Part shown: piece by piece, positions 3,237-44,063 of the stretch
Layout of the letters: each line of letters starts with the position of its first letter
Numbering within the stretch: position 1 is the stretch's first letter
DNA from: Chiloscyllium plagiosum
Taxonomy: Eukaryota
Assembly: GCF_004010195.1 (NCBI RefSeq)
Contig: NC_057719.1
Coordinates: 25,680,663-25,744,662, forward strand
Direction of reading: 5' to 3'
DNA: 64,000 nt
Notes under the pieces: generated by a model
The model's database searches: none
The model's input: only the letters and a program-made list of their open reading frames with translations
Told to the model about the DNA's origin: nothing
Position numbers and translations under genes: made by a program

Positions 3237-3239
3237 TCA

Positions 3240-20649: not shown

Positions 20650-21199
20650 CTGAAAGGAAAGAATAAAATAATTGAGAGCTTCAGTAACCCTGAATTAATG
20701 GTGTTATATTTGTAAACAGCCAGGAACTATTTGTTTTGTGAATATATTTCCAAGATTGCCACATGTTAAACAGACGTCATGTGATGAGCACAAATGTCTA
20801 TCAGTCCGCCAACCACAGAGACACTGCAAGAAATACATCCTTCCCTTTGCTGAAATCAGGTACTGACTGCCTTTCGCCAAGGGCTCCCCTCCATCCAGTA
20901 GCTCTTGAATGACCCCATTGAGTGAACCACCCTCCTGCTGCTGACTCAATATTAGTGGTTGAACAATTAACTATTTTTCTAGCTGATTAAATGACACCTG
21001 CCATCAAACTTGTCACAAGGGAGGACACAAGATTTGATCTGATGAGAGCACTGTGGGCATAGAAACCCCAACACTGCATGCAATGGCTGGGTGTGTCAGC
21101 TTCACAGAACCATTCAGATCAGCAAGAGGCTGCTTTATAAACCTGCAATCATAAATCTGAAGCTGCAGCTTCATGAATTGAACAGATAGTTTGCATTGG

Positions 21200-22190
21200 T
21201 CTTCACTATTGGAGGATACAAGTAATATTCTGGAAATAACTGTAATTCAGGAAATGGAAGGGAGAGACAAATGCAGGAGAATTACAATCACCAGGGAAGT
21301 AGTACAGATTCCATCTGAGCACATTGCTGGAGCTATGGCCTGTGAAGTCCCTGAGTCCTGATGAACTTCAGCTTTGGTTCTTAAAGTAGTGACTGGTGAG
21401 ACAGTTGATACGTGACCTTAATTTTCCACACTTGCCCACTTTTGGGAAAGGTTCAATTAGACTGGGACATAGTGAATAATGATTTAATTTGCAAAGAGAG
21501 GGAGCCATCAAACAGGAAACTACAGGTCAGTCAGCTTAACATCTGTCACATTGAAAATGTTAGAAGCTTATATTGCAGAAACTATAGCAGAGCCACTGAG
21601 AAAAGTTCAAGGTAATCACACAGAGTTACATTAAAGTCAAAGAGTGGGGTGCTGGAAAAGCACAGCCGGTCAGGTGGCATCCAAGCAGCAGGAGATCAAG
21701 ATTCCTGATGAAGCGTTTATGTTGGAAATGTCGACTCTCCTGCTCCTTGATGTTGCCTGACCTGCTGTGCTTTTCCAGCACCACACTCTTTTACTCTGAT
21801 CTCCAGCATCTGCAGTCCTCACTTTTTCCTAGATGGTTATATTAAAGGATAATTATGTTGAACCAATTTATTGGAGATCTTTTTGGAATTAAAATATGCT
21901 GTGGATTATGGAGAATTGCATTGTATTTAGATTTCCAAAAAGCATGGAGTGATAAGGTGGCTTATTAAAGATTATAATGGAGAATGAACTGTGAAACATT
22001 TGGCATTTGGATAGAACTCTGCCTAGCTAACAGGAAACAAAACAGTCATAAAATGGTCATTTTCAGGTTGGCAAGATGTAATGAATAGCGTCATAGGGAT
22101 CATTGTTAGGAGCTCAACAGTTTACAATCTCTATGTAAAATGAGATAGTAATTTTCATTATGGTTGCTAATTTTGCTAATGACAAGAGGA
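21200..22190 (+). mobile_element. Old, highly decayed CR1 ORF2 fragment
   Basis: ggaaactacaggtcagtcagc (NYRxVS), ttagatttccaaaaagca (LDFQKA) and ttttgctaatgaca (FAxD). Confidence 0.65.
21633..21831. mobile_element. PLE-derived fold-back element, family 1, with degenerate hammerhead
   Basis: Inverted arms gtgctggaaaagcacagc and gctgtgcttttccagcac. CTGATGAAGCGTTTATGTTGGAAATGTC at about 21705-21732. Family tail present. Confidence 0.7.
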
Positions 22191-22615
22191 GAAAGACTTT
22201 AACACTAATTCATTATAAACCTACTTCATATGGGGTTATTACACAAAGTATGAGGCTACCTGACAGAAACATTATTGCTCTTCTCTCTCTGGAAAAACCC
22301 ATATAAAGTCTCTAAAAATGTTAAAGTCTCCTAGTTTCGACTTCTATAATGATATTCCGGAGTTGACTTATACTCTGTCATCTACACAAGTGTCTCATAA
22401 AGGCTAACAAATAACTCCAAGCTTGAGGTAAACTAAAAGTGATGGATAGCGGAAGTAGTCACATTTTGGGTACCTGACCTGTGGCCGTGAACCAGAAGTA
22501 TTTGAATAAGTGACTGATACAGGGAAAACAGCTCCTAGAAATGAAGTTTACCAACAGATGCAAGGAGGCAGGGGACAGTCCTCACCAGGCAGCTGCCATT
22601 TTCTGATTGAGGAAG

Positions 22616-22782
22616 CTGAAAATGTGTTGCTGGAAAAGCGCAGCAGGTCAGGCAGCATCCAAGGAACAGGAGAATCGACGTTTCGGGCATAAGCCCTTCC
22701 TGGATGCTGCCTGACCTGCTGCGCTTTTCCAGCAACACATTTTCAGCTCTGATCTCCAACATCTGCAGACCTCACTTTCTCC
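22616..22782. mobile_element. PLE-derived fold-back element, family 1
   Basis: TSD TCTGATTGAGGAAG at 22602-22615 and 22783-22796. Near-perfect inverted arms. Confidence 0.8.
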
Positions 22783-23071
22783 TCTGATTGAGGAAGACCT
22801 GGGAATGTAGAGGAAGACTGGACAAAACATTTGTTAACATTTTGGCTACAGAACAGAAGGCTGCTTCACTCTGCGCTATGTGTCCTTTTGTCCTCCGGCT
22901 TGTAACTATTATATGCTTTTCCTATTTATACAGCTTATGCCTTATGTCTGACTGAGCCTTTACGAGACTTACTTGAAATGACTAATGAGTTCTGTACTGA
23001 AGTTCTGTACTTATAATGGAGAACGAAGCATGCAGTGTATTGTGAAACATTTGGCATTTTGATAGAACTCT

Positions 23072-23669
23072 GCATTGAAAGCTAGGCTTTCAGAATGATA
23101 ACAGTTTACAGCCACTGTTTTGTCATATAGTTACCACCATCTACCCACCATTCATATTCAACAGATGCCATCACCAAACACGTCTTCACAGCATGTCCCA
23201 AAACCCCTTCGCCATTTGGGTGATGTGTGACTCCCAAATCTTACCAACAATCCTTACCTACAACTCCAGTCTAAAAAGAAGAAGTGGTGAGTTAATGTCT
23301 GATATTGTTGAACTCAATGTAAAGTAGGTTGGATTGTGAGTTTACGAAATTAAAAGGATTGCAAGCAAATCACTGTTTCACTTTGAGGGAGTCAATGGGA
23401 AGAAAGAATCTAAAAAAGCAGGTGCTGTATCTCTTGTACTTGCAGAGGAAAATGTCGTGAGATGAGAATGGAAAATTGAGGTTTTCCGAGTTGTCAGAGT
23501 TTTAGGGAGGGAATAATCCATTTGGAATGACGAAGGGGTTTTGGGACATGCTGTGAAGATGCGTTTGGTGATGGCATCTGTTGAATACGAATGGTGGGTA
23601 GATGGTGGTAACTATATAACAAAACAGTGGCTGTAAACTGTATCATTCTGAAAGTTTAGCTTTCAATGC
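23072..23669. repeat. About 145-bp inverted repeat flanking a decayed PLE relic
   Basis: 23072-23216 is the reverse complement of 23526-23669 with few mismatches. Confidence 0.85.
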
Positions 23670-23869
23670 TTTTTAACAACAGAGGCATAGAGTACAAAAG
23701 CAAAGCAAGTTTGCTGAACTTATACAGAACAGTTGCTGTCACATCTGATCTTAATTCTGGCAACTCTTGGAGAGGAAAGCTCTGTAGTGGGTTAAGAAGA
23801 CTTACTAGAATAGCTCTGGACTTGATGGACTACAGAGAATCTGGAGTTGTTGACATGAGACCAAAAGAC

Positions 23870-24945
23870 AAAGAGAAATAGGATTTGGCATTTGGTCCCT
23901 TGAGCCTGATCCACCACCCAACAGGATCATGACTGATCCAATGCTCATCATGTCTGCTTTCCTGCCCTTTCCCCATAACCCTTGATTCCCAACTGACCAA
24001 AAATCTATCTCAGTCTCAATTATACACAAGGACTCTATCCCACAGCTCCGTGAGGCAAGGAATTGCAAAGACTCACAACCATTTGAGAGAAGAAATTCCT
24101 CATCACCTCCATCTTAAATTGCCGCCCCTTTATTCTGTGACTATGCCTGTTGGTCCTAAACTCACCCATGAGAGGAAATATCCTCTCAGCATTTAGCCTG
24201 TCAAGCCCCTTAAGAATCAAATATGTTTTAATTGATCACCTCTCATTCTTCTAAAGTCCAATGAGTAGAGTTCCCAAACTTTAACCTTTGATCAGAAGAC
24301 AATCCCTCCATACCAAGGACTGTCCTAGGAAACTTTCTCTGAGCTGCCTCCATTGAAATAATATTTTTTTTTTAATAAAGTTACCAAAACTCACCAGCAC
24401 TTTCTACAATTGCAGTAAGACTTCTCTAATCTTATACTCTAACCCCCTAGAGATAATGGCCAACATTCCATGAGGCTTTCTGATTACTTGATGCACCTGT
24501 GTGCTCACTTTCTGCGCTTCATGTACAAATAAGTGGAAGTCCCTTTATGTGGTCATTTCCTGCAGCTTTCTCTATTTAAATAATACTGTTCTTTTGGTCT
24601 CCCTTCCCAAATGATCAACTTCGCATTTTCCCACTTTATATTCCATTTGCCAACTTCTTACACACTTACTTAACCTATCAATGTCTCTCTGTAAACTTTC
24701 TGTATCCCTCTCTCTACCTACCTTTCCACCTCAATATTTTCTGCAAATGTGGCTACAGTTTATTTGCTTCCTTCATTGAAGTCATTAAAATATATTAAAA
24801 GCAGTAACAGTTCCAGCACTGATCACTGTGGAACTCCACCAGTTACAGACAGAAAATTACTTCCTGCCCATTCATCAATTCTTAATCCATGCCAATATAC
24901 CATCTCCAACACCATGGGCTCTCATCTCAGCCAAGAAGCCTGAAG
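23870..24945 (-). mobile_element. CR1 3' fragment
   Basis: Minus ORF ILKGLDRLNAERIFPLMGEFRTNRHS...RNFFSQ is a CR1 ORF2 C-terminus. Confidence 0.8.
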
Positions 24946-25195
24946 AATTTGATGGAGGTGTACAACTTTAGGAAGGATCCGATAGAATAAATAGAAACTG
25001 CTTCTAATGGCTGAAGGTTCAATTAATCAGATGACTCATTTAATTTTATTAAATTTGATTGGCAAAAGAACTAAAGGCAACTTGAGGAAAAGCCCTTCCC
25101 CAAACAGTGGTCAGGATTTGGATTGTACCTCACCTCCAGATATTGTTATGGATATGGATTAAATTAGGGTTTGAAAGAAAATTGGTCTAACGTTT

Positions 25196-25308
25196 GGAGA
25201 AAGCGAGGACTGCAGATGCTGGAGATCAGAGTCGAGAGTGTGTTGCTGGAAAAGCACAGCAGGTCAGGCAGCATCCGAGGAGCAGGAGAATCGACGTTTT
25301 GGGCAGAA
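25196..25308 (-). mobile_element. PLE terminal fragment, family 1, single arm
   Basis: Reverse complement of the family 1 tail and arm, ending at gacgttttgggc. Confidence 0.7.
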
Positions 25309-25354
25309 GAGCGTCATAGGCTGCGGGGTGACCTTATAGAGGTTTATTAAATCA

Positions 25355-25466
25355 TGGGAAATCTGAAATAAGAACAGAAATTGCTGAAAACACTCTAAGT
25401 CTGGCTGCATTTGTGGCGAGCGAAACAGGATTCACCTTTGAGACTGATGACCTTTTCATCAGAACA
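25355..25466 (-). mobile_element. PLE terminal fragment, family 2-like, degenerate hammerhead
   Basis: Minus strand GTTCTGATGAAAAGGTCATCAGTCTCAAAGG followed by the family arm. Confidence 0.55.
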
Positions 25467-25741
25467 GGAAGAAAGTGGAGACGGAGATTTAATAGAGGTG
25501 GGATCACAATGGAAGCACAACAGGAATATCTGTAGAGGGCAGGAGAAGCAAAAAGAAGAAAAGAGATAATGGTGCAAGGCAAAAAAAGATAGTAATGAGA
25601 CAAGTAAAGAAACAAAGACTGGATCCAGAAGAGAGGTAAACAGGACAGGAGAAACTGACTAGCGAAAGCGCAGTCAAATAGAACAAAGAACTGCAGATAC
25701 TGGAGATCTGAATATAAACAGAAATAGAAGGCGAAACTCAG

Positions 25742-26123
25742 CAGCAGCTCAGATTTGGTTTGGACACCCAACAGCCTTTAGGACTCAACATTGAGCTCAA
25801 TAACTGTTTCTGTCCTTCCATGATTTTTCACCAACGCCCAAACCCTGGTCCTTAATGACGTGGATTGCTTTCAGGACAGCCTGATGGTTCTCTCCTTCTC
25901 TCAGCTCAATCGGCTTCACTTCTGTCCTGTCTTATTATCAACAATGTCCTTTCATATCTCTCTGTCTGGGTTCTGTCTCCACCTATCCACTCACCTCATC
26001 AGGCCATGACACCTCCCGCCCAGCTTCGACATAAATACTACTTTTCCTAGCTGATATCAGTTCTGATGAAGAGTCACTAGACTAAAAGTATTAACTCTAC
26101 TTCTTCCCCACAGATACTGCCTG
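25742..26123 (+). mobile_element. Penelope-like element 3' fragment (ORF C-terminus, UTR, hammerhead motif)
   Basis: 25742-25804 translates QQLRFGLDTQQPLGLNIELNN, like the PLE GIY-YIG C-terminal LxTxxPxGLN motif. Followed by AGTT-CTGATGA-A-GAGTC-ACTA-GACT... from 26059. Confidence 0.7.
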
Positions 26124-26487
26124 GAATGTTGTCAATGCCCATAGCTGTTGCACTACCCAGTGCCTCCAACCGTTTCTTGATACCACGTGGAGTAAACCGA
26201 ATTGGTTTCAGACTGGTATCTGTGATGCTGAGGAGTACAGGAGGAGGCTGAGATAGATCATCCACTTGGCACTTCTAGCTGAAGATTGCTGCGAAAGCTT
26301 CAGCCTTATCTTTTGCACTGATGTGCTAGGCTCTTCCATTATTGAGACTTGGGATATTTGTGGAGCCTCCTCCTCCAGTGAGATTTTTAATTGCCTACCA
26401 TGATTCATGACTGGGCGTGGCAGTACTGCAGAGTTTGGATCTGATCCGATCACTCAGCTCTGTCTATCATGTGCGGCTGATGGTGGT

Positions 26488-26766
26488 TGTATTAAAAAGC
26501 TGATTCCTTTTTTCCACAAGCTGTTCCTTGATATTTTTTTTCAGAGGGGTCATAAATGGGCTAGGCTCTAATTAAACTAGCTTGGTACAGGGATGAAGAG
26601 GATTTTGAAAGGGTTTTTGTTTATATGTAAACTGATGAGATTTCAGGTCAAAGTGGTCATGTTTTAAATGTGACCTGTATAATGAAGGGGAGCAGTCAGC
26701 TCTCTCGCTGAGCAGTTCTGTCCAGACCTAGTTGGGAGTTCAACAGTAAGCTGTGTGGAAATAGTC

Positions 26767-26802
<36 letters not shown>

Positions 26803-27134
26803 TCTGCCCTTCTAACTTCAACCTGTAAGCATCTGTTCCATTTTTTAAATTGTGTTTCAACAGGGTTTGCTTAGTGGGTCTGTTGTGTCTATTTGGAGCA
26901 GCATAATTAAGTCTAGTTTGGATAGACAGGGTTCTGTAGAGATTCTTTATTCTGTTCTTTTGTTTCATTGTGTAATTTTGTTAATAAATTTTTGTCTGTT
27001 TTAAACCCTGGTAGCCAACTTTGCTAACTTAATCCGGGTAATTTTCACTGTGCACTTTGTGAAACAAATTGCAAAGTTATGGTCTGAGTTACCTGCCTAA
27101 GAGTGTCTTGAGTGGTCCGGCCTAGATCATTACA
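26488..27134 (+). mobile_element. Probable solo LTR
   Basis: TGTATT...ATTACA termini. Internal TATAA, (CT)n and AATAAA (about 26983). Interrupts a LINE, but no clean TSD is visible. Confidence 0.6.
26771..26799. repeat. (CT)n microsatellite
   Basis: Direct reading. Confidence 0.95.
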
Positions 27135-27453
27135 GTTGGCGTGCAAGTAGTACTGTTTGATAGTTTCAACAGGTTGAGACCTCACTTTCAGGTATGCCTA
27201 GTGCTGTTCCTGGCACGGTCTCCTGCACTCTGCATTGAACCAGGATTATTCCCCTGGCTTGACAGTTATGGTTGAGTGGAAGACATGCTGGGCCATGTAG
27301 CTACAGATTGTGCTGGAGTACATTCTGCTGCTGATGGCCCAAAGCACCTCATGGATGCCCAGTCTTGATTTGCTACATCTGTTTGAAGTCTGTCCTATTT
27401 AATATGGTGATCGTGCAACACAACATAATGGAGGACACAATGCTGCAGTCCCA

Positions 27454-28490
27454 GTCATAGAGTCATAGAGATATACAGCATGGAAACAGACCCTTCGGTC
27501 CAACCTGTCCATGCCGACCAGATACCCCAACCCAATCTAGTCCCACCTGCCAGCAGCTGGCCCATATCCCTCCAAACCCTTCTTATTCATATACCCAACC
27601 AAATGCCTCTTAAATGTTGCAATTGTACCAGGCTCCACCACTTCATCTGGCAGCTCATTACATACACGTACCACCCTGTATGAAAAAGTTGCCCTGTAGG
27701 TCTCTTTTATATCTTTCCCATCTCACCCTAAACCTATGCCCTCTAATTCTGGACTCCCCCACCCCAGGGAAAAGACTTTACCTAATTATCCTATCCATGC
27801 CCCTCATAATTTTGTAAACCTCTATAAGGTCACCCCTCAGCCTCTGACGCTCCAGGGAAAACAGCCCCAGCCTGTTCAGCCTCTCCCTATAGCTCAAATT
27901 CTCCATCCTTGTAAATCTTTTCTGAGCCCTTTCAAGTTTCACAACATCTTTCCGACTGGAAGGAGACCAGAAATGCACGCAATATTCCAACAGTGGCCTA
28001 ACCAATGTCCTGTACTGCCGCAACATGACCTCCAATGTCCTGTACTGCCGCAACATGACCTCCCAACTCCTGTACTCAATACACTGACCAATAAACGAAA
28101 GCATACCAAATGCCTTCTTTACTATCCTATCTACTTGCGACTCTACTCTCAAGGAGCTATGTACCTGCACTCCAAGGTCTCTTTGTTCAGCAACACTCCC
28201 TAGGATCTTATCATTAAGAGTATAAGTCCTGCTAAGATTTGCTTTCCCAAAATGCAGCACCTCGCATTTATCCGAATTAAACTCCATCTGCCACTTCTCA
28301 GCCCATTGGCCCATCTGGTCAAGATCCTGTTGTAATCTGAGGTAACCCTCTTCACTGTCCACTACATCTCCAATTTTGGTGTCATCTACAAACTTAATAA
28401 CTGTATCTTTTATGCTCGCATCCAAATCATTTATGTAAATGACAAAAAGTAGAGGACCCAGCACCGATCCTTGTGGCACTCCACTGGTCA
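27454..28490 (-). mobile_element. 5'-truncated CR1 (RT C-terminal half plus tail)
   Basis: 233-aa ORF PQGSVLGPLLFVIYINDLD...KFVDDTK...RGDLIEVYKIM. Tail reads agtcatagagtcatagag on the plus strand. Confidence 0.93.
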
Positions 28491-29319
28491 GCTACTTTAT
28501 CTACTTTACTAACTTCTTGTTACACCTTCAGGTTGACCCCTCATTATGATTCATGTTTCATTAAAAAAAATTTCCTGAAAGCGAGTTTGCCATTATAGCA
28601 TCCATTGGTGGCATATAGAGAATGGAACATACAGTTTCTTTTTTTGCACACCGTTTGGCACAATCATTGGCATAAAACAAGTATTTTACCTTCATTGAAA
28701 CCCAACACAGTACTCAGAATAATAGTTCAGCCTTTATCCTTAGGCACTAACAGTAAGAGAGGAATAATATCTGACCTTTTCACTTCACCCTTGAATGACT
28801 TCACTGTGCAATTTTATTATGGCTATGTGGGCACCATCTAGTCAAAGAGCAGCAGATCATAATGCCAATCCAGTGAAGAAGAATCAGCCCTTCTGAATGA
28901 AATGAGAGACAAAAAACACAGATTTGGCTGTGCAAGATCCTTCCAGACTGTTACGCTTGCCTGAAGGGAGCTGTCACTCATCAACAAGGTACTAGCCCAG
29001 TGCAGAAAATAATCAATTAAATTCAAAATGGCTGGCAAGGTCATGTTAAGACCTAGAGAACTGATACGTTGTTATTGCTGTAGGTTGGTAGCAGATTGAA
29101 TGAATGTCGCCATTTGCACACGGGGGAGAAGGAGATCAAGGTGAGGTATCAACATTAAACTGAGTTCTGCAAAACCATTAATGCAACACTCAGTGGAGAT
29201 TCCTCTGAGTGTACATCACTCTGATGGTCTGCCTCCAGTATCTTCGATTCACCTGGGAAATGATATCTGCATCAATCAGATCAAAGTGCAGTACCTCCTG
29301 AATTATGAAGTTCAGAAAG

Positions 29320-29517
29320 TTAAAAATCACACAACACCAGGTTATAGTCAAACAGGTTTAATTGGAAGCACACTAGCTTTCGGAGCGACGCTCCTTCATC
29401 AGGTGAGCGTCGCTCCGAAAGCTAGTGTGCTTCCAATGAAACCTGTTGGACTATAACCTGGTGTTGTGTGATTTTTAACTTTGTACACCCCAGTCCAACA
29501 CCGGCATCTCCGAATCA
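29320..29517. mobile_element. PLE-derived fold-back element, family 3
   Basis: 78-bp inverted arms at 29316-29393 and 29405-29482 with 2 mismatches. TSD GAAGTTCAGAAAG at 29307-29319 and 29518-29530. Confidence 0.8.
29371..29405 (-). ncRNA. Minimal type I hammerhead ribozyme motif
   Basis: CAC-CUGAUGA-A-GGAGC-GUC-GCUCC-GAAA-G-C-U-A-GUG. Stem I is CAC/GUG, stem II is 5 bp, stem III is a loopless palindromic AGCU, and the predicted cleavage triplet is CUA. Activity is not shown. Confidence 0.75.
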
Positions 29518-29849
29518 GAAGTTCAGAAAGGAACTGTAAGGTATTGTTATTTCTCTGAAGGCTGAATGCAGATTCTTGATTTGAGCAATAATATGCTTTG
29601 ATCGCACTCATTGTTCATCTCTTCTACAGTTACTGCAGCTTCTATATTTTGGGTCACTAAGTGTGCAGACGGAAGGCTTTGAATAGCTTTGTCTCTATCA
29701 AGAGGTCAGGGAGGGGCCATTGCCAAGGGATGAAGCCTCATCGGCCACTTTTTGATTGCTGCTACATGCTTGCTCTTCACATTGCCTGAGAGAACACTTC
29801 ATGTTACACATCAATTCGACCTTGGAGTTTAGAGAAAGCAGCAATTCCA

Positions 29850-31215
29850 TAAGATAGAGCTATAGAGTCCTTTCTCACAAAGACAGGCCTCTTGGTCCAA
29901 ACTGGTCCATGCTAACCAAAATGTCCATCTATGCTAACAGCATTTCCTTGCATTTAGCCCATATCCTACTAAACTTTTCTATCCATGTATTTGGCCAAAT
30001 GCCTTTTAAATGTTGTTAATGTAGCCGCCTCAACCAATTCCACTGGCAGCTTATTCCATATGCATACCAGCCTCTGTGTAAAAAGGTTGCCCCTCAGGTT
30101 CCCTTTTATTCTTTCCCCTCTCACCTTAAAATGATGCCCTCCAGTCCTTGATTCCCCATCCTTGGGAAAAAGACTTGAGTGCATTCACCCTATCCATGCC
30201 TCTCATGATCTTACACACTTCTATAAGATACCCCTTCAGTCACCTATGCTCTAAAGAAAAAAGTCCTAGCTTGTCCAGCCTCTCCCAATAACTCAGTCCC
30301 TTGAGTCCTGGCAACATCCTTGTAAATATCTTCTGCACTCTTTCCAGTTTAATAACAGCCTTCCTATAGCAAGATGACCAAAAATGAACACAATACTTCA
30401 AATGCAACCCCATCAATGTTCTGTACAACTGCAACATTACTTCCCAACTTCTTTATTCAATAAAGGTCAGTGTGCCAAAGGACTTCTTCACTGCCCTGTC
30501 TACCTGTGACTCACTTTCAGAGAACTGTGCACCTGAACTCCCAGGTCCCTCTGTTCCACTAAACTCCTTAAGGCCCTACCATTCACCATGAAACTCCTAC
30601 CTTGATTTGACTTTCCACAAGGTAACACCTCACACTTACCTATATTAAACTCCATTTGCCATTTCTTAGCCCATTTCCCCAGCTGATCAAGATCCTGCTG
30701 TAATTCCTGACAACCTTCCTCCCTGTCCACAAGACCACCGATTTTAGTGTCATCAGTAAATTTACTAATCATGCCTTGTGCATTTTCATCTAAATCATTG
30801 ATAGAGATAGCAAACAGCAATGTACCCAGCATTAACCCCTGAGGCACTCCAGTCCAACAAGCATCCTTCCACTATCACCCTCTGCTTCCTCCCATCAAAA
30901 CCAATTATGTATGCAATTTTCAGCTTCCCCTGGATTCCATACAATCTAACCTTCCACAGCAGCCTAACATGTGGAACCTTATCAAATGCCCTCCTGAAAT
31001 CCATATAGACTATGTCTACTGCCCTGCCTTCATCTACCCTCCTGGTCACTTCATCAAAGAATCCTAACAAATCTGTGAGGCATGATACGCAACGCACAAA
31101 GCCATGCTGACGACTCCTAATCAAACCCTGTCTTTCCAAATGGAAATACTTCAGAATCTCCTCAAGTAACTTACCCACCACAGATATTAGGCTTACTGGT
31201 CTTTAGTTCCAAGGT
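29850..31215 (-). mobile_element. 5'-truncated CR1 (RT to 3' end)
   Basis: ORFs QHGFVRCVSCLTDLL...MDFRRAFDKVPH, PQG..LG.LLF..INDLD..KFTDDTK, and HLKYCVHFWS. Confidence 0.92.
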
Positions 31216-31332
31216 TGCCAAGATCCTGTGGCTCTAGTGTTCTACTATCTAGGTCCAATTTCTAAACTTGTAAACTGGGTTAGCCTTGTGCAAAACAGCA
31301 TGACAAATTTATGCTTGAATTCTGTCCGGTTA

Positions 31333-34300
31333 ATAGAACATAGAATACAGAACAATACAGCGCAGAAAAGGCCCTTCGTCCCTTGATGTTGCACTGACCT
31401 GTGAACTAATCTAAGCCCATCCCCCTACACTATCCCATCATCATCCATGTGCTTATCCAGGGTTGTTTAAATGCCCCTAATGTGGCTGAGTTAACTACAT
31501 TGGCAGCAGGGCATTCCACGCCCTTACCAGTCTCTGAATAAAGAACCTGTTTTTGACATCTATCTTAAATCTATCACCCCTCAACTTGTAGCTATGACCC
31601 CTCATACAAGCTGACATCATCATCCAAGGAAAAAGACTCTCACTGTCCACCCTATCTAATCCTCTGATCATCTTGTATGTCTCTATCAAATCCCCTCTTA
31701 GCTGTCTTCTCTCCAATGAGAACAGACCCAAGTTCCTCAGCCTTTCCTCATAAGACTTTCTCTCCAGACCAGGCAACATCCTGGTAAATCTCCTCGGCAC
31801 CCTTTTCCAATCCTTCCTGTAATGGTGCGACCAGAACTGCACACAATACTCCAAGTGAGGCCACACTGGCATTTTGTACAGATGTAGCATGACATCGTGG
31901 CTCCGGAACTCAATCCCTCTACCAATAAAACTTAACACACCGTATGCCTTCTTAACAGCACTATGAACCTGGGTGGCAACTTTCAGGGATCTATGTACAT
32001 GAACACGAAGATCCCTCTGCACATCCGTATTACCAAGTATTTTCCCATTGACCAAGTATTCTGTCTTCCTGTTATTCCTCCCAAGAATAAATGAATCACC
32101 TCACATTTATCTGCATTGAACTCCATTTGCCACCTTTCAGCTCAATTCTGCAGTTTATCAAAGTCTCCCTGCAACCCATAACATTCGACCACACTGTCCA
32201 CTACTCCACTGACTTTGGTATCATCTGCAAACTTACTAACCCATCCACCTATGCCTGCGTCCAAGTCATTTATAGAAATGACAAACAGCTATGGTCCCAA
32301 AACAGATTCTTGAGGCATACCACCAGTAACCGGACTCCAGGCTGAATACTTTCCTTCAACCACAACTCGTTGCCTTCTTACAGAAAGCCAGTTTCTAATC
32401 CAAACTGCTAAGTCACCTTCAATCCCATGACTCCGCATTTTCTCCAAAAGCCTACCATGTGGAATCTTGTCAAAGGCTTTACTGGAGTCCATGTACACTA
32501 TGAGGAGAAAGTGAGGACTGCAGATGCTAGAGATCAGAGCTGAAAATGTGTTGCTGGTAAAGTGCAGCAGGTCAGGCAGCATCCAAGGAGCAGGGGAATC
32601 GACGTTTCGGGCAAGGGCTCATGCCCGAAACGTCGATTCTCCTGCTCCTTGGATGCTGCCTGACCTGCTGCGCTTTTCCAGCAATACATTTTCAGCTCCA
32701 TGTACACTACGTCAACTGCCCTACCCTCATCCACATGTTTGGTTTGTGAGATAGGACCTGCTCTTGATGAATCTATGTTGACTATTTTCAATCAAATTGT
32801 TGCTTGCTAGATGATTATAAATCCTATCTCTTATAATCCTTTCCAAAACGTTTCCAACAATAGGCTCACTGGTCGATAATTACCTGGGTCATCTCTGCTG
32901 TCCTTTTTGAACAAGGGCACAATATTTGCAATCCTCCAGTCCTCAGAGACTAAACCTGTACACAATGATGACTCAAAGGTCAAGGCCAAAGGCTCAGCCA
33001 TCTCCTCCTTCCCAGAGAATTCTTGGAAAAATCCCAACTGGCTCAGGGGACTTATCTACTTTCACTCCTTCTCCTCCTTACTAACCTCAATCCTTTCAAG
33101 TCTAATAGCCCGTATCTCAGTCTTCTCCTCAACAATGTTTTCCTTTTCCTGAGTGAAAACAGCTGAGAAATAGTCGTTCAGCACATCTCCGATCTCCACA
33201 GGGTCCACACACAACTTCCCACTTTGGTCTTTGACTGACCCTATACCTACCCTAGTCATCCTTTTATTCCTCACATACCTATAGAAAGCTTTAGGGTTCT
33301 CCTTTATTCTACCTGCTAAAGACTGCTCATGTCCCCTCCTTGCTTTTCTTAATTTTTTCTTTAAATCCTTCCTCGCTACTCTTTAACTCTCCATCACCTC
33401 ATTTGAACCACCTCATCTCAAAGTAATAAGCCTCCCACTTCCGCTTAACAAGAGATACAATTTGTTTTGTAAACCACGGTTCCCTTACCTTATCACTTGC
33501 TCCCTGCCTGCGAGGAACATACCTATCAAAGACACACAATATCTGTTCCTTAAACCAGCTCCACATTTCGATTGACCCCATCCCCTGCATTTTGCTGCCC
33601 CATTCTATGCCTCTAAAATCTTACCTCATCGCATATTAATTGCCCTTCCCCCATTTATAACTCTTGCCTTGTGGCATGTATGTATTCCTTTCCATCATTA
33701 AACTAAACAGAACTGAATTATGGTCACTCTCTCCAAAGTGCTCACCTACCACTAAATTCATTACCAAGCACCAGATCCAGTGTGGCCTCTCCTCTTGTCT
33801 GTCCTTTGACATACTGTGTCAGGAAACCCTCCTGCACACATTGGACAAAAACTGATCCATCCAACGTACTTGAGTTATAACATTTCCAGTCAATGTTGGG
33901 GAAGTTAAAGTCCCCCATAATGACCACGCTGTTCCTTTCACTCCTACCCAGAATCGATTTGCCAATCCTCTCCTCCACATCCCTGGAACTTTGCGGAGGC
34001 GTATAAAAACCTCCCAGCAATTTGACCTCTCCTCTCTTGTTTCTAACCTCAGCCCATACCACCTCAGTAGACGAGTCCTCTTCAAATGTTCTTTCAGCCA
34101 CTGTTATACCGTCCTTGACTAACAAAGCCACATCTCCCCCTCTTTTACCACCTTCCCTGATCTTAATGAAATATCTCAACCCTGGAACATGCAACATCCA
34201 TTCCTGACCTTCCTCCACTCATGTCTCAGAAATGGCCACAACATCAAAGTCCCAGGTACCTATCCATGCTGTGAGCTCACCTACGTTATTCCGGATATTC

Positions 34301-35185
34301 CTGGCGTTGAAGCAGACACACTTCAAACCAGCTTGCTGTCTGCCAACACACTCCTGTGACCGTGAAATCCTGTCTATGTCCTCCCTACTCTCATCGCCCT
34401 GCATACTGGAACTACCACAACTTCCCATCCCCCTGCTGAGCTAGTTTAAACCCACCCGAACAGCACCAGCAAATTTCCAACCCAGGATATTAGAGCCGCC
34501 CTGGTTCAAGTGATGGCCACTTGTTTGTAGAGGTCCCATCTTCCCCAGAATGAGCCCCAATTATCCACAAACCTGAAACCCTTCCTCCTGCACCATCCCT
34601 GCAGCCACATGTTCAGCTGATATTGCTCCCTGTTCCTCACGTTGTTATCATGTGGCACGGGTAACAAATCAGAGATAACAACTTTCTTTGTTCTCGCTTT
34701 TAGCTTCTACCCTGGCTCCCTGAAATCCTGCCTTACATCCTATCCCTCTTTATACCTCGGTAGTTTTTAACCTATGTGGACTACAACTTGGAGCTGGTCA
34801 CGGGGCACACCTTAATACTAAACAGAACTGAATTATGGTCACTCTCTCCAAAGTGCTCACCTACCACTAAATTCATTACCAAGCACCAGATCCAGTGTGG
34901 CCTCTCCTCTTGTCTGTCCTTTGACATACTGTGTCAGGAAACCCTCCTGCAAACATTGGACAAAAACTGATCCATCCATCCATTTCCAGTTATAACTTAA
35001 TACTAGCGACGCTATGAAAGCACAGGTCCAGAGGTTCCTCTGAGAGGTTCCCTTCAGGACCCCAAAGACATGATCTGAGACATCACAGACCCTGGCACCT
35101 GGGAGGCAACACACCAACTTCTGAGTCTCTTTTGTTCCCAACAAGCCTTCTACCTGACCCTCTAACTATTGAGTCCCCAATGAAT
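31333..35185 (-). mobile_element. Near full-length decayed CR1 (ORF1 esterase, APE, RT, tail)
   Basis: Colinear minus ORFs: LVCCLPGARV, CFNARNIRN...VAISET, GDFNFPNIDW, PGNYRPVSL, KAFDKIPH, HLEYCVQFW. agaacatagaa tail at about 31334. Same subfamily by eye as 13660-15775. Confidence 0.93.
32501..32696. mobile_element. PLE-derived fold-back element, family 1, nested in CR1 RT
   Basis: TSD TCCATGTACACTA at 32488-32500 and 32697-32709. Arms at about 32537-32613 and 32622-32698. Confidence 0.85.
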
Positions 35186-35419
35186 AACGTTGCAAATGCT
35201 GCAAACATCTACCTGTGGTTACGCAAATGTATCCTGTTCAGTAGATGTTTTAAGCCGTGGTCAATTCAATAGCATTTGAAGGCATAGCACAGGCAGACTA
35301 GTGTGGTTACATGTCATATGTAAAAGATCACGTAGATATCTAATTGTCTCTGTGGTATATAAACTCTTCTTTCACCATGCTGACACATCCTACTGGTGTA
35401 GGGAGGAAGGGAGTTGAGG

Positions 35420-36410
35420 CTTTTTTTATTCATTCATAAGATGTGGGCATTGCTGGCTGAATCGACATTTATTACCCATCAACCATTATCTTTGTCCACC
35501 CAAGTTTGGATATTCTCCAGATCTTGCTGCATTTGAACATGGACTGCTTCAGCATCTGAGGTGTTGTGAATGGTGCAGATCATTACGCAATCATTGGCAA
35601 CCTTCCCCACTTCTGCCCTAATAGAGGGAAGGTCATTGATGAAGCAGCTGTAGATGGTTGGACGTAGGACACTACAAGAGGTACTCCTGCAGAGAAGAAC
35701 TGAGATGACTGACCTCCAAAAACCATAACCATTTTCCTTTGTGCCAGGTATGACTCTAACCAACAGAGAGGTTTTCCTTGATTTCCAGTGACACCATTGA
35801 TGGGAATGACTGAACAGATTGGATTTGACCTGCTTTAGGTGTATAGGACACACCTGCGCAATTTCCCACATTGTTGGGTAGATCCAGTGTTGTAGCTGTA
35901 CTGGAACAACTTGGCAAGGGGAGATACAAGTTCTGGAGCACAAATCTTCTGTACTATTGCCAGAATGTTGTCAGTGCCCTTTGCAGTATTCAGTGTCTCC
36001 AACTGCTTCTTGCTATCATATGGAGTGAATTGAATTGGCCAAAGATTGGTATCTGTGATGCTGGGGCCCACTGGAAGAGGCCAAGATGGATCATCCACTC
36101 AGCACTTCTGAATGAAGATTGCTGTGAATGCTTCAGCCTTATCATTTACACTGATGTGCTGGGCTCTTCCCTCATAGAGGATTGGGATATTTGTGGAGCT
36201 TTCTCCTCCAATGAGTTGTTTAATTGTCCACCACCATTCACTATGAGATGTGGCAGGAATAAAGAACTTAGATTTGACCCAATGATTGTAGGATCACCCA
36301 GGTTTGTCTATCATTTGTTTCTTATGCTGCTTGGCACGCAAGTAGTCTTATTTTGTAGCTTGACAGGTTGATGCCCCATTTTTCGGTATGCCTGCCGCTG
36401 TATCTGGTTT
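35420..36410 (-). mobile_element. Second-family LINE, RT region and 3' tail
   Basis: ORFs KICAPELVSPLAKLFQYSYNTG, PTMWEIAQVCPIH and FINDLPS...ANDC...QQDLENIQTW. Tail gatgtgggcattgctggc. Confidence 0.8.
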
Positions 36411-36414
36411 GCAC

Positions 36415-36770
36415 AACGAAAAATGCTGGAAACCACAGCAGGTCAGGCATCATCTGTGGAGAGGGTACAAGCTAATGTTTTGAGTCTAGATGACTCTTCA
36501 TCGGACCTGACATGATGTGTGGAGGGGGCTGCATTGATTTTGTGTGTGCGTGTGTGCAGAATGTTCATGGTTCAGAGTAAGTGATAGGAATGTGAGAATG
36601 GCAGAACACAACTGCCAGACTGGAAGGTACAGATGGTCTTTCTGTGGGGAGAGGGAAGAGAGAACATGGTAACAGACATTGCATCAAGTTAAGCTAAAAT
36701 AAATGGAAGGAATGGGAGTGAGTTTACAATCTGAATGTGTTGAACTCAATCTGAAGTCCATAAGGTTATA
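36415..36770 (-). mobile_element. Penelope-like element 3' fragment with degenerate hammerhead
   Basis: Minus 36765-36724 translates PYGLQIEFNTFRL*. Downstream is CCGATGA-A-GAGTC-ATCTA-GACTC-AAAAC-ATT at about 36505-36475, then the family arm. Confidence 0.65.
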
Positions 36771-37450
36771 TAGTATATTCTGGCTACTGCATTATTAATT
36801 TAAGATAATGCCTGACTCTCAATAATTCCACCCTTTCCCACTACTGTTTTTCTATGATAATAACCATCTGAAAATCTTTCCTGGCTCCTGTGATGCCATG
36901 ACTCTGCATGTCTGAGAAGAGTGAATGGACTGGCAGTGAAAAAAAAAATCCTGATATATCCAGGAAAACAGACTGAAAAGCTCTTCCAAATTATAAGCTT
37001 AAACTCTCAAATCCCTTCAACTTCACAAAGCCCTGCCTTGATCAGATGATTGTAGCAGCAGCTTGGCTTGACGTAACTTACCCTGGAAAATTTAACAGCA
37101 AGAATTTAACTAAAAACTGAACAAAGTCTATTAAATCTCCCAAGCAAAGAAACAAACATCTACTAATCTAAAAAAATTGAAGTAAAACAATTGCCAAATT
37201 CAGATTAAGACTCCTAAATTAAAATGCCGATTACCTACTGGAGCTGTCTTCTGAGTATATGTTTAGCTTGCAACCAAAGGTTGGGAGGTACTTTCAAAAG
37301 ACTGAAGCTGTTCATTTGCATGCACAAAAAAGTAATAATTTTCAAATGTATTTACAAACCCTCTTCAATTAAATGTGAGAGAAGTGAATTTAGAGAATTC
37401 AACTTTGACAGACATGTGTTAACACAGGTAAAGTTGTCATCATCTGAGAG

Positions 37451-37658
37451 GAGTCAAGAGTGAATACTGACTGAAGTCAGAGTGAAGTCAGGAATCGAGA
37501 GTGATTCCTGACTGAATCAGGAATGCTGTTCCTGATGAAGGGCTTTTGCCCAAAACATCGATTCTCCTGCTCCTTGGATGCTGCCTGACCTGCTGTGCTT
37601 TTCCAGCACCCCATTCTCGACTCTAATCTCCACTATCTGCAGTCCTCACTTTCGCTCC
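37451..37658 (+). mobile_element. PLE-derived insertion, family 1, with scrambled 5' filler
   Basis: TSD TCATCTGAGAG at 37440-37450 and 37659-37669. CTGATGA-A-GGGC-TTTT-GCCC-AAAAC-ATC from 37532. Confidence 0.75.
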
Positions 37659-40334
37659 TCATCTGAGAGAGCCATAGGGCTATTCTCTCATTGATTTGTA
37701 AGTTTAAATTGAGGGTTACTATGCCTCAGGCAAGGGCTAAAGTTGAGAAGGTTGGTCCTTCAGGGTGACCTTAGCCAGTCCAGGATGCTGGTATCACTCT
37801 TCTTGAACCAGCCTGCCAGCCAGCCAACTGAACTAAACTGGCATCATTGGTCTTAACAGCAGATTTACAATGTAATTCTGGCTTGTGTTCGGTGGCTGCA
37901 AGTTTGTATTGCAGCAAGGTTGAAGTGTGCTTGTATGCTGTCTGACTGAAACTTTGCAAAGCATTAGGAATCAAAGTCATACCTGTGTGGTTAATAAGAT
38001 TTATGTAAATCATAATGCCATAATTGATCATATAACTCTGATGCCTGTAAGAGAGAAGGCCCAATTTGAGAGTGAGCATGTAAAGAAATAGGTCTTAGAC
38101 AAGAGAGATATATTTGATAAACTATTATGTACAGAAGGAAATATTAGGAGTGTTACAGTACAAAAAGAGTTAAGAACCTTTGTGATCAGGAGCAAGCAGC
38201 CTCAGAATCAGGTACGTGCTTGCACCAACAGCCCAGAGATGCTTTGGACCAGTATTTCAATGTGCAGTTAGCAGTGCTGGCTTAAAGCACAAGATACAAC
38301 AGCTGTAGTCTTCATTGACTGTACTCCTATTCTTGGTGGTGGCTGGGTGGTGACAGGAAGGATATTGAATCTCTCCAACGTCACTTAAATGCAGTGGACA
38401 CCTCTTAAAAGGAATGTGCCCACCCCTTTGATTATAGAAGAACAGCTACATTTGAATGGAGCAGAAAATTTGCCAGAACTGCAGATTTTGCCCATGGTTT
38501 CAGGAATGCTACCTTTGGGTTGCTATCCAGATGTTGCTAAGGATGGGGACAGGAATCCCTTCACATTTTAACTCTGCTGGCAGTGGGAAAAGATGGAACA
38601 GGGAGTGAATGTCAGGAGCTTAGGCTGAAATGCCAGTTCATTGTCAGCAGAATTGTCAAGGTAATAGTGCTCTCTTACCCTATGCATAGCTCCACTACTT
38701 CTAGCCTCACTACTCAATAGATTCCCCTAACTGCTTGCATTCACTCACCCACTAGATGCCTTATTCTCTTTTTTCCCTTTGTTCTATTTGACCCTACTCA
38801 GTCAATGAGCTGAGCAGAGCATGGATTGTTCTGTGCAACATGGACCAAGTGGTCCAATCCATGAATGCAGCAGTGGCCCCCTGAATACTGGAGCCTTGGC
38901 TGACAGTTCTGAAAGCTTCTAGGCCTATCGTCATTGGAGTTGTCTCTGACAATTACTGTGGCAGCTCACATCTGCTACTGAACCATAGACAACTACCATC
39001 TTGGCTCTGGGTGCCAGTATTGACAGGGGTCTGCAAGGAACAGAGGGCACTAATTTATTTCAGACATTTATTCCTTTCAATATGATTACCGTGTGCTTCT
39101 AATGCCATGTGCAAAGTTTGAATCAACATGACAGGCAGGAGAGTGTTCCAGCTAGAAATGAACATGCAATTTCAGACAGCCTTATTACAAACCTAAGAAG
39201 TCAATTAACACCCAAAATGGGCAGTACGTAACCTAACTTTTGGAAAATACATTTATGTTGAGGTAGAGTAGGTTTAAAAGTTCCCAATGTCTCCAATACT
39301 TCAAAATACCTGAATAATTTGTAACTCAGCTTTGACCTCACTCTGGACTTAAATGTTGCAATGCTAACTGAAGTGAAACTGACCCTACTCGAGTAAGTCT
39401 CACATTAGTCTGCTGCAGAATCAGGCCAAACGTTAAGTAGTGTTATAATTGATGGCCATGTCTCTCTATTTTAGTGTCCTCCTAGTCTCAACATTATGTG
39501 AATCAGTTGTTCCCAAAAGAGAGCCCATTCTATTCTATATCTATTATTTTGCTGAACTCACGAAAGCTCAGTCCATGTGAAACTATTTGTCAGCAAATGT
39601 GTTGGCATGTGGTTTACAGATGTCACAGTTTGGCGACTAATTTACAGGATATATGCTGACACAGCCTGGAAAAAGTCAGTTCTCATGCAAGACCATTTCC
39701 CAGGGATGTAGTGAAGAATAAATAGAAAGGAGAAATAAAACTGTTGGTGGCATCAGCGGAACTCACACAGAAAAGAAACTTCTAGTGCGCGTAATCTACA
39801 TTTTGTAAAACACAACTTTCTGAACAATTTGCTTCTGTAAGACCTGCCCCCACATCACTGTGTCGTACTGTGGTTTTCACACTGTTAGAACATCCGTATT
39901 TGTCGTCATGGTAACTCAGCAGTGGTCACTGAGAGCCGAACTAATTATAAGTTTTATTTTTTAAGGAAGTTAACGGAGTTATTTGTTTGCACTTTTGTTC
40001 TGTTTTTTTCAGTGATTTGTCATTTTATATAATAGCTTTTATAATTCTTGACTTGGCAGCAACAGAATCAAGACCAATTAGCTGATAATTCCTATTGCAA
40101 AATGTGAATTACGCCCGCATTGCGATTTTGTTAATAGACTGGAAATACCTCCGAACACATGGAGCTCACTTGGCTGACTGTACTAACCCATTCTTGTGAC
40201 TTGATTCATTATACTACTCTTATCTAGTTGATAGATCATCACAACACTGAAGTATTAACAGTGCTTTTCTTTGGTTGAGATATCCACTCAACTCCTCCCT
40301 CTCTGAACACTTTATTAGATGGAATAATAGCATT

Positions 40335-40665
40335 ATGGGGAGGCAATGACCTAGTGGTATTATCACTAGACTGTTAATCCAAGAGATCCAGGTAATGTTC
40401 TGGGGCCTGAGTTTGAATCCTGCCATAGGAAATGATGGGATTTGAATTCACTAAAACGAAAATCTGGAATTACACCTCTAATGAGGACCACTGTCAGGTA
40501 AAACCCATCTGGTTCATGAATGGCCTTGAGAGAAGGAAACTCCATGCGGTCTCGTCTGGCCTACATGTGACTCCAGACCCACAGCAATGTAGTTGACTCC
40601 TAACTGTCAATGGGCATTTAGGGATGGGCTGGCCTAGTCAGCGATGCCCACAATGTTTAAAAAAA
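40335..40665 (+). mobile_element. tRNA-derived SINE with tail shared with the second LINE family
   Basis: A-box-like tgacctagtgg and B-box-like gagtttgaatcc. 3' end agcgatgcccaca plus A-run, as at about 57250-57270. Confidence 0.7.
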
Positions 40666-40943
40666 GAGAAGTTTTTCCAACACCAACATTTATTTAACAA
40701 CCTAACACCACCAAAAAAAAGAGAATGATCCAAACATTACCATTTTGCTATTGGTTAATCATGTTGTGTACATACTGGCTGCAGGAAGAAACAACTTTGA
40801 AAGAAATTTTGGACAATTTTCCAGGTTAGCTGAAGCTTTTTATTTCCAACTTGTGGGAGGAGGAGCCACAAACAGGCAGGGCATTAGGCATGGAGCAACA
40901 GTGTGATACATCAGGATTCAGTTCAGGACCTTCAAGAGTTAGA

Positions 40944-41263
40944 TGGGAGGCACGGTGACTCAGTGGTAAGCACTGCTGCCTCACAGCGCCAGAGACCTAG
41001 GATCAATTCCCGCCTCGGGTGACTGTCAGTGTGGAGTTTGCACATTCTCCCCGTGTCTGCGTGGGTTTCCTTTGGGTGCTCCGGTTTTCTCCCACAGTCC
41101 AAAAATGTGCAGGTTAGGTGAATTGGCCATGCTAAAATGCCCGTAGTGTTAGGTGAAGGGGTAAATGTAGGAGAATGGGTCGAGGTGGTTGCACTTCGGC
41201 GGGTTGGTGTGGACTTGTTGGGCCGAAGGGCCTGTTTCCACAATGTAACTAATCTAAAAAAAG
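40944..41263 (+). mobile_element. HE1/V-SINE
   Basis: tRNA-like head, V-domain gtggagtttgcacattctccccgtgtctgcgtgggtttcc, and CR1-type tail ggccgaagggcctgtttcc. Confidence 0.92.
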
Positions 41264-42259
41264 TAGCAAAGGTTCTCTCTATCAGTAACACGTGCAATAC
41301 AACCATGTCTCTCCTGAACATCCACCGCCTTCCTGCATCTTTAACCAATCCTTTCCCTTTATCACCAAGCACAGGGACACTTTAGGCCACTTCTCATTCC
41401 CATTACATTCAACACTTTATTCCTAATTCAGCAATGGGTGATGTCTCAGAATTAATGCTTTGTGACTGCTGCCAGCAAAATCTGCTGCAGATACCTGTGA
41501 TGATCACACATCAGTTGAACATTGTGGGGTAAGAGCAATCTTTACTGCTGGAACCTAACTGTTTACAATAGAATCAATAAATTCAGTAATGCTAGCGCAC
41601 GTTATGGAAAACTGGAACCAAATAATAAATAAAAGACACATGCTACATCGTGCAGTTCAGTTTGATCTATTTCTGTATATTTGAATGTGATGGGGAACAG
41701 GGCATAAATTCAACAGATTATTGATGTGTAACCACAACTCCAATGCCAACATCAAGCAACATACAGATGTGGTGTGAAATCTGGAACCGTGGATTAGCAC
41801 ATGGTTGTGTTTCATGCCAGCACTATCGAGGAAAATGTTCCAAATCCTCTCATCCCTGCACTTAGCCAAGGCCCCTCACATCAAGTCGAGCTATTTTCAT
41901 ACTATCTTACTTTCTGCCTCTTGACTCAGCTGAAATTGAAATAATTCCACAGGGGCCATTTCCCAGGGGCACTCCACGGATAGAAAAATATCTATGCCCA
42001 CTGGGGCTTTAATTGCCAATTCCATCGTGGAGGCAGCAATTCTGAATCAGCTGCCCCACAATTTTCCTGGACCCCTGCCAACATCCCTGCCCCCATGGAG
42101 CTGGAAAGATCCATCACACAGATTCTGTATTAATTAGTATCACCAAAAATTGGCACACTTGTTGCTGAGATGCAGCATGTGCTTGGGAAATTGGAGGGGA
42201 TTCAAGGACATGTCCTTTTCCTGATGGAAAAAATGTAGATGGAGAAGTTATTGCAACTG

Positions 42260-42780
42260 ATTCTCTGGTTATGATTCCATACATACAAATGGACCAAGTG
42301 AGAGCACATTCACCCAGTTGGACAACAGTGAACAGGTATTGTAGGAGGATGTTGTAGTTAACTGTGACAAAAAATGTAGTGAGTTAGTGAAGAATGTGGA
42401 AAGACAATTAACTTTGTCTTTGGTGCATAGGATTCCATTCATGACTTTGATAAGAGCTGTTTTTATTTTGAGGCAGATAATAAAATCTGGAGAGATACAA
42501 ACCAGAAAGATGGGCACTGATATGGTAGCTAAGAAAACTTCTGAGGATTTGGAGAGAAAAGGGAGTTTGGAGTTGGGTGGTATTTGCAAAGACAATGGCA
42601 TCATGGAAATGTTTTGGAGAAGGTGATGACAATCTCAAATGTGAAGGATAGAGGGACAGTGCCTACGCAGGGAGGATCATCATTAATATTGGTTAACAAT
42701 ATTGGTGAAATGGAGAGGATGTTGGGTGGAAGTCAGCAATTTATTGTGAATAGAGTCACAGGAATGGGAAACTAGAGCAA
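42260..42780 (-). mobile_element. L2 LINE RT fragment
   Basis: KTALIKVMNGIL resembles the L2 TETALxKVxNDIL motif. Decayed. Confidence 0.6.
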
Positions 42781-42947
42781 GAACAAGAATATAATAAATA
42801 AGAACAATGGGAGAACACATGGGCCCCAAAGCCACCTATACCATTTAATATAATCATCACCCCTTTTGGGCTTTGACTGTCCTGACTACTCTGCATATCA
42901 CTTGATTCACTAAGCGACCAAAACTCCATCTCTCTCAGTCTTGAATA

Positions 42948-43135
42948 TAAAGTAAGATGCCATAGGCCCAGAGGGCTGTTCTCTCATTAGAGAGAGATGA
43001 CTGGTGGTGAGTTTAGTCTAAGGGTCATCACACCTCAGGTGAAGGGCAAGATTGAGAAGGCAGGACCTCCACTATTGTAGGAAGTATACCATGGCACCGC
43101 TCTGCATTTTAAATCAGTCAATTCAGTGAACCTAT
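42948..43135 (-). mobile_element. Short interspersed repeat, also at about 37670-37835 and 45635-45810
   Basis: Shared ctctcattagagag...agggtcaNcacacctcagg...gttgagaagg. The 45635 copy ends in a reverse tRNA-like head (ggaattgaaccc...caactgagcta). Confidence 0.55.
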
Positions 43136-43350
43136 CCTCCACTGTGTATGGGCAGGAGCAGAGCACCCACAAACCACTAGGGTGGAAATTCCAAAGATTT
43201 GCAATCCTTTGACTGAAGTCATTTCTCCTCATCTCTGTCCTAAATGATTGGTTTCTTATTCTAAAAATGTGCCTCCATTGTTTTAGATTCCCTGGTCAGA
43301 ATAAACAATTCCCCACAATCTACACAACCAAATATCTTCAAAATCTTATA

Positions 43351-43697
43351 CAGGTAGACAACCCTTTATCCAAAATCCCAAAATCTGAAAAGCTCCGAAA
43401 TCCGTGGGACTTTTCGTGAAGTTTTTTTCTCATCAGCAATGCTGTTTGGCATGCAAACAGTTAGCCCAACTCCATACCCACTCGATGCGTGTCACTCCGA
43501 TGCGACGTGTGGATCCATGGCCCAGCACTGGCAGGCCTCAATCCTGTGTTAGGGCCTGTAGTACTCACAGTGCATCTGCTGGTGGTAAGATTTTTAAAAA
43601 TTTCCCCATTAAGTGACACTTATTCTGAAATTTGAAAAATTCTGAATTCCGAAAACCAGTTACTCCCGAGCATTTTGGATAAAGAATTGTGCACCTG
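43351..43697. mobile_element. Tc1/mariner pogo/Tigger-type MITE
   Basis: TA|CAGGTAGACAACCCTTTATCCAAAAT...ATTTTGGATAAAGAATTGTGCACCTG|TA: imperfect 26-bp TIRs and a TA TSD. Subterminal (AAATCYG)n resembles Tigger4/MER46 as recalled. Confidence 0.8.
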
Positions 43698-43754
43698 TAC
43701 TTTTTTAATAATCACTTCTCATTCCTCGAAACTCCAGAGAATATAGATGTAATT

Positions 43755-44063
43755 TAGATAAGATTACTTACCGTGTGGAAACAGGCCCTTCGGCCCATGA
43801 AGTCCACACCAACACGCAACCCACCCAGACCTATTCCCCTACATTTACCCTTCGCCTAACACTACGGGCAATTTAGCATGGCCAATTCACCTAACTTGCA
43901 CGTTTTTGGACTGTGGAAGGAAACTGGAGCACCCGGAGGAAACCCACGCAGACACGGGGAGAATGTGTGAACTCCACACAGTCAGTCGCCTGAGGTGGGA
44001 ATTGAACCCAGAATCCCACTGCTGTGAGGCAGCAGTGCTAACCACTGTGCCACCGTGCCACCC
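43755..44063 (-). mobile_element. HE1/V-SINE nested in an old CR1 3' fragment
   Basis: Head, V-domain and tail all present in reverse complement. Confidence 0.92.

Follow-up and report, generated by a model that had tools for sequence, protein, structure and literature searches.

A 198-bp insertion in a long intron of RIN3 very probably arose by recent, two-ended integration of a Penelope-like element (PLE), and the hammerhead ribozyme motif it carries would be a passenger, locked in a 78-bp hairpin and likely never cutting. Two head-to-head 3' ends, a one-sided tail and a 13-bp duplication together point to the insertion unit of endonuclease-bearing PLEs. The window, by which we mean the whole 64-kb stretch of DNA that was analysed, includes the host intron and the exons on either side of it.

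Host intron, hammerhead motif and insertion

Protein matches identify the host gene as RIN3: the top match, 97% identical, is a Chiloscyllium punctatum VPS9-domain protein, and the 14 next are named chondrichthyan RIN3, save one unnamed protein. The exons either side of the intron are on the minus strand, at 52257-52144 and 20653-20576. The hammerhead lies in RIN3 sense orientation within this intron, in agreement with the initial annotation, which had put the intron's length at ~31.5 kb.

That annotation had also claimed a complete set of core residues for a minimal hammerhead on the minus strand, and base-by-base numbering bears this out (Table 1). C3 U4 G5 A6 N7 G8 A9, G12 A13 A14, A15.1-U16.1 and H17 are all found, as are an additional residue that lies between 9 and 10.1, a G10.1-C11.1 pair and a palindromic 15.2-16.2, and these motif features support the proposed assignment to Penelope-type minimal hammerheads. 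A strict minimal-hammerhead descriptor finds one site in the 64 kb (29371-29405) and none in 300/300 dinucleotide shuffles; a relaxed descriptor finds two sites, against a shuffle mean of 0.003. The Rfam comparison suggested as a check turned out negative, with no hammerhead model matched at E<=10 on 5 kb and 109 nt or at gathering score on the whole window. Matches to the Rfam families MIR845_1 and mir-3045 score below gathering and were rejected as due to the long hairpin only. In a MAFFT alignment with seven distinct, misregistered and partly decayed rows, no measure of covariation exceeds shuffles (166-380/500). When seven sites are anchored by eye, stem II is retained with different sequence in four of them (three families), and two stem III palindromes, AGCU and ACGU, are seen. 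A hammerhead pattern scan of viral contigs gave no match, the first hammerhead pattern gave none in metagenome contigs or in genome contigs, and a 24-nt pattern match lying in bacterial sequence (L003) was set aside as chance.

The motif forms part of one arm of the insertion, which spans 29320-29517 and has an exact 13-bp direct repeat on both sides. Its two copies of the element's 3' end are reduced to about 90 and 113 nt, lack any ORF, and include an inverted repeat of 78 nt with 97% identity (29316-29393 and 29405-29482). Continuing the left copy, 4 nt of the left target duplication (29316-29319) still match the element, and an inverted 5'-truncated copy adjoins at the 5' end. On the RIN3 transcript, the right copy is antisense and forms the arm with which the hammerhead pairs. 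Neither another copy of the motif's own repeat family nor a PLE ORF occurs within the 64-kb window.

Table 1. Features of the RIN3-intron insertion and its hammerhead motif (positions in the window)
Feature	Position	Strand	Remarks
RIN3 intron hosting the insertion, 31,493 nt	20650..52142	-	GT-AG boundaries at 52142 and 20650
Left 13-bp target-site duplication	29307..29319	+	Single copy at the empty site, organisms B and C
Left (tail-less) copy of element 3' end, with whole hammerhead core	29320..29405	-	RIN3 sense
ATTAAA hexamer	29357..29362	-	12-15 nt upstream of family poly(A) sites 29345, 29342
Minimal type I hammerhead motif	29371..29405	-	Base-by-base numbering and descriptor scan
Stem I, 5' strand	29405-29403	-	3-bp stem I
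C3-A9 core, CUGAUGA	29402-29396	-	
Extra A after A9	29395	-	
Stem II	29394-29390 with 29386-29382	-	5 Watson-Crick pairs, 3-nt loop
G12 A13 A14	29381-29379	-	
Stem III, loopless palindromic AGCU	29378-29375	-	
H17 = A	29374	-	
Stem I, 3' strand	29373-29371	-	
Inversion pivot	29394..29406	.	11 nt from left copy only (29394-29404); 29405-29406 fit either copy
Right copy of element 3' end	29405..29482	+	5'-truncated inside stem II; lacks CUGAUGA core
One-sided tail extension, 35 nt	29483..29517	+	Family ends at both tail borders
Right 13-bp target-site duplication	29518..29530	+	Exact repeat of the left one

The site is empty in both of the related organisms examined. One contig joins 29306 to 29518 in organism B (run X10), and the same arrangement is found in organism C (run X14); these contigs lack 211 bp, corresponding to the 198-bp insertion and 13 bp more, and the 13-mer is single there. 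In a second sample of organism A (X4), contigs carry both outer junctions with 0 differences, which rules out an assembly artefact at those positions. The central pivot is bridged by no X4 contig among those listed, and the central junction rests on the window's assembly. Divergence between the arms (2/78, or 2.6%) is comparable to or below the divergence of the flanks between species (3.4-3.6%). The simplest reading is that the insertion occurred after the species split and is decaying neutrally. Since it is missing from the two close relatives, the hammerhead is not conserved there. Youth explains the intact core, but function would explain it likewise.

Repeat family, coding fragments and RNA reads

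The repeat family is very large. In three contig runs, 70,218, 80,095 and 78,522 contigs matched, nearly all on the element, although these counts do not correspond to copy number. Family sequences have loose ends, with a low-agreement AT-rich continuation, at 29479-29484 (420-499 contigs per listed place), and further loose ends at 29517 (1,183-1,339 contigs per listed place), where the pile is partly forced by the end of the reference but even so consensus is lost some 5 nt into the continuation. The left copy ends at the first of these family borders and the right copy at the second, and the two pile-ups constitute a two-end tail signature.

Two marine metagenome contigs (L001 and L002) contain a hammerhead that matches at 34 of 36 nt, with differences in loop II only, and that adjoins RT-like and endonuclease-like coding fragments. 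The RT-like fragment of L001 matches Pfam RVT_1 with an E-value of 1.5e-5, under the curated cut-off, and Pfam gives no match for the L002 fragment. Also beside the hammerhead, an endonuclease-like fragment matches the C-terminal end of an RT-bearing protein at 47% identity. Its YIGET motif, read by eye, may represent GIY-YIG; searches of NCBIfam and PDB sequences did not identify the endonuclease. Because the sequence downstream in L001 and L002 differs from that of the RIN3-intron element, the near-identical hammerhead supports the element class, not the exact family. Within the regions concerned (L001 1-1050, L002 1-1470), the hammerhead has a 5-bp stem I and the RT-like and endonuclease-like fragments are rearranged, and L002 contains an internal inverted repeat of 109 nt.

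Five other hammerhead-like remnants, from two other repeat families, were found in the window by scan and by eye. Those at 840, 21705 and 37532 on the plus strand are copies of a second short repeat family that has a minimal hammerhead at its start. The copy at 840, alone of the five, keeps both core and palindrome (ACGU), and those at 21705 and 37532 are decayed. The remnants at 8628 and 25462 on the minus strand are also decayed, belong to a third family and lie in RIN3 sense within introns. Decayed LINE-like remnants, recognised by eye from RT- and endonuclease-like fragments in the ORF list, occupy 173-3412, 13615-15679 and 27553-35165. A perfect, in-frame tandem duplication of 30 nt (28002-28061) lies within a LINE-like RT remnant.

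About 2% of one RNA run (X21) was read, and 2,707 of 12,955,460 records matched. Depth is zero in 23/23 unique-flank bins (of 30 bins), so no X21 reads can be assigned to the RIN3-intron locus. Among element reads, poly(A) is attached at 29342/29345 (438 and 346 reads), and past 29405/29406 the reads run on into two upstream sequences other than that of the RIN3-intron locus (452 and 572 reads). The element reads therefore come from other loci, and they span the cleavage site uncut. No pile-up of read ends is listed in X21. The library is blind to the 30-nt 3' product, and the reads therefore show abundant uncut family RNA, not an absence of cleavage. The family poly(A) sites are located some 30 nt downstream of the cleavage site. 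As they are also upstream of both proposed starts of reverse transcription, RNAs ending there would not include the tail region. A>G plus T>C changes make up 23/73 changed places in X21 RNA versus 1/33 in X4 DNA (29308-29545; Fisher p 0.0008), a comparison in which the X4 differences are incompletely counted. This excess is possibly due to A-to-I editing of family hairpins, or else to private alleles of a few expressed loci.

Folding, cleavage prospects and integration

Folded in isolation, the motif has a pair probability of about 0.85 for stem I and about 0.99 for stem II, and its folding energy is not unusual (z -1.3). In an equilibrium model without kinetics, where local hairpins, editing or helicases could alter the fold, the penalty for a hammerhead-open structure is 1.4-1.5 kcal/mol for the motif alone versus 43.4 kcal/mol with both arms. 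The penalty is 32.7 kcal/mol at the earliest point tested, which is nascent RNA just past completion of the motif. The energy of the two-arm hairpin is -135 kcal/mol. The complementary arm described in the initial annotation is real (78 nt, 97%) and, as stated there, is transcribed first on the minus strand; the folding check with and without this arm (predicted penalty 33-43 kcal/mol) supports the sequestration anticipated from it. Of the suggested auto-inhibition, this sequestration is supported, but a designed inhibitory pairing is not, since an inverted arm is a standard integration product of the element class. For the inhibitory arm, the best interpretation is a by-product left by integration, not a switch.

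The further suggestion that nascent RIN3 RNA could be cleaved after 29374 is not supported. Folding predicts full pairing of stems I-III and the cleavage site once they are made, and the window has no second hammerhead of the same family with which the motif could dimerise. A loopless stem III means that a partner copy is needed, and the right arm is unsuitable as a partner because it lacks the core and is antisense on the RIN3 transcript. The energy model gives a modest gain (-4.5 kcal/mol) for a 4-bp AGCU duplex between two copies; when two motifs are cofolded, the structure of lowest energy is a different one in which stem II is swapped. Single minimal hammerheads showed no cleavage, and dimers low cleavage, in the available text of PMC4209133, as also in a review. 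The hammerhead in RIN3 pre-mRNA is likely inert on this folding model.

We propose that staggered cuts, 13 bp apart, were made by the element's endonuclease, and that uncleaved element RNA was reverse-transcribed with both target 3' ends as primers. Both new strands, read from the target 3' ends, would be antisense to the element. One start of reverse transcription would have been at the tail end, producing the right junction, at which no microhomology is seen, and the other about 35 nt upstream, producing the left junction, at which target and element match over 4 nt. Synthesis would have stopped at the hammerhead, and the ends would have been joined via 1-2 nt. Both arms extend 5' of the cleavage site, which implies that the template RNA was uncut. 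A second cDNA could have supplied the duplicated arm, or the left cDNA could have folded back to meet a short tail cDNA; both routes fit the locus. Two simpler schemes were rejected: the right (tailed) cDNA folding back on its own does not agree with a pivot that comes from the left copy, and a lone left cDNA folding back leaves the tail unexplained. In the RIN3 transcript, the antisense arm would be made first and would capture stems I-III and the cleavage site. With no dimer partner near in cis, the intron would then be spliced out with the motif uncut.

Parts of this scheme have precedents in the portions of the literature available to us. Self-priming was proposed for such junctions by Arkhipova et al. 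2013 (PMC3846280), and in vitro work on the lizard element Poseidon_Ac (PAc; Frangieh et al. 2024, PMC11167929) describes two start sites of reverse transcription, extension of both target strands and dispensability of hammerhead cleavage. Our literature search returned no paper that ties the Penelope head-to-head shape, the tail and both-strand reverse transcription together.

Known elements and alternative readings

The minimal hammerheads of metazoan PLEs, as far as presented in the accessible part of Cervera and De la Pena 2014 (PMC4209133), resemble the RIN3 motif in being type I with a full core, and they share the extra nucleotide 9/10.1, the G10.1-C11.1 pair, the palindromic 15.2-16.2 and the absence of loop 3. 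A solitary motif in a truncated copy is likewise common to both, and pairs of minimal hammerheads close together on opposite strands also occur among those in that paper. The RIN3 stem I has 3 bp, followed by a mismatch and 2 pairs (partly from the pivot), whereas that of Schistosoma has 4-5 bp, and the RIN3 stem II has 5 bp versus 7-8. Sharks are not named among the hosts in the same part of that paper.

In the available text of PMC8557442 and PMC3846280, the insertion unit of endonuclease-bearing (EN+) PLEs comprises an inverted 5'-truncated copy, a one-sided tail of 30-40 bp and a target-site duplication. The unit in Craig et al. 2021 (PMC8557442) and the RIN3 insertion both exhibit head-to-head copies, a tail at one end, a target-site duplication and an empty site. 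However, the duplication is 13 bp at RIN3 versus 8-10 bp in the rotifer EN+ examples (PMC8557442, PMC3846280), and the RIN3 insertion has no ORF whatever. PAc (PMC11167929) is similar in its two starts of reverse transcription bounding the tail, its use of both strands and its uncleaved template. Its ORF begins at stem II and reverse transcription starts 111-118 nt into that ORF, whereas, in the RIN3-intron copy, the ATG within the hammerhead core opens a frame of 8 codons before a stop. Non-LTR retrozymes (Li, Clavereau and Pollet 2026, 10.64898/2026.07.22.740005), which the accessible part of that report places in one chondrichthyan, are like the RIN3 element non-coding and PLE-derived, with a type I hammerhead. 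In retrozymes, however, units are repeated directly in tandem and two or more complete hammerheads are present, while the RIN3 insertion is an inverted pair with one hammerhead and so lacks the tandem arrangement by which they are recognised. By its testable features, the RIN3 insertion belongs with the PLE minimal hammerheads found in truncated inverted insertions.

Other readings of the locus give the hairpin or the insertion a role of its own. The hairpin could be an off-switch, released by editing, by a helicase or by the PLE protein, after which the motif would dimerise via AGCU with family RNA and cut RIN3 pre-mRNA. If true, this would couple RIN3 output to retroelement expression. The hammerhead core residues are all intact, abundant polyadenylated family transcripts could serve as partners in trans, the AGCU duplex is favourable, and the hammerhead of a lizard PLE is protein-assisted (PMC11167929, in the part available). 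We nevertheless consider this reading very improbable, given the size of the sequestration penalty, the stem-II-swapped structure of the best cofold, the absence of the insertion, and hence of conservation, in two close relatives, and the poor cutting of even true dimers in the available text of PMC4209133.

It is improbable, in our estimation, that the insertion acts on RIN3 as a 78-bp dsRNA editing substrate or as an ATTAAA intronic poly(A) site, with the ribozyme irrelevant. The hairpin energy, the polyadenylation of family transcripts at 29342/29345 and the A>G plus T>C excess in X21 are in keeping with such a role. But X21 has zero depth in the unique flanks and no reads assignable to the locus, the hexamer is itself within the hairpin, about 40 ATTAAA hexamers are already present on the intron's sense strand, and the RNA changes could be private alleles. 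We find it hardly credible that the 198-bp unit is a self-propagating palindromic mini-element, MITE-like or retrozyme-like. It has inverted arms and a clean target duplication, and contigs from other loci (X10 records 2-3, X14 records 9-10) span a similar pivot, but those pivots differ, with 5-7 gaps in 3/4 records, and arm joints are scattered over many positions (15 listed and 626 more). In addition, the one-sided tail makes the arms asymmetric, unlike terminal inverted repeats, and the tandem arrangement of retrozymes, as given in the accessible part of 10.64898/2026.07.22.740005, is lacking.

As a PLE insertion with a passenger hammerhead, the locus is nothing unusual: its kind was described in 2013-2014, and it is one among very many hammerhead-bearing Penelope stubs in the shark genome. 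Cleavage of RIN3 RNA, if shown, would matter because cutting of a host transcript by a Penelope minimal hammerhead is unreported in the literature as available to us. The locus is of modest value as a clean integration record, with filled and empty sites, a 13-bp duplication, a one-sided tail and short junction matches, and this record fits the two-start, both-strand priming of the lizard element in vitro, as set out in the accessible part of PMC11167929.
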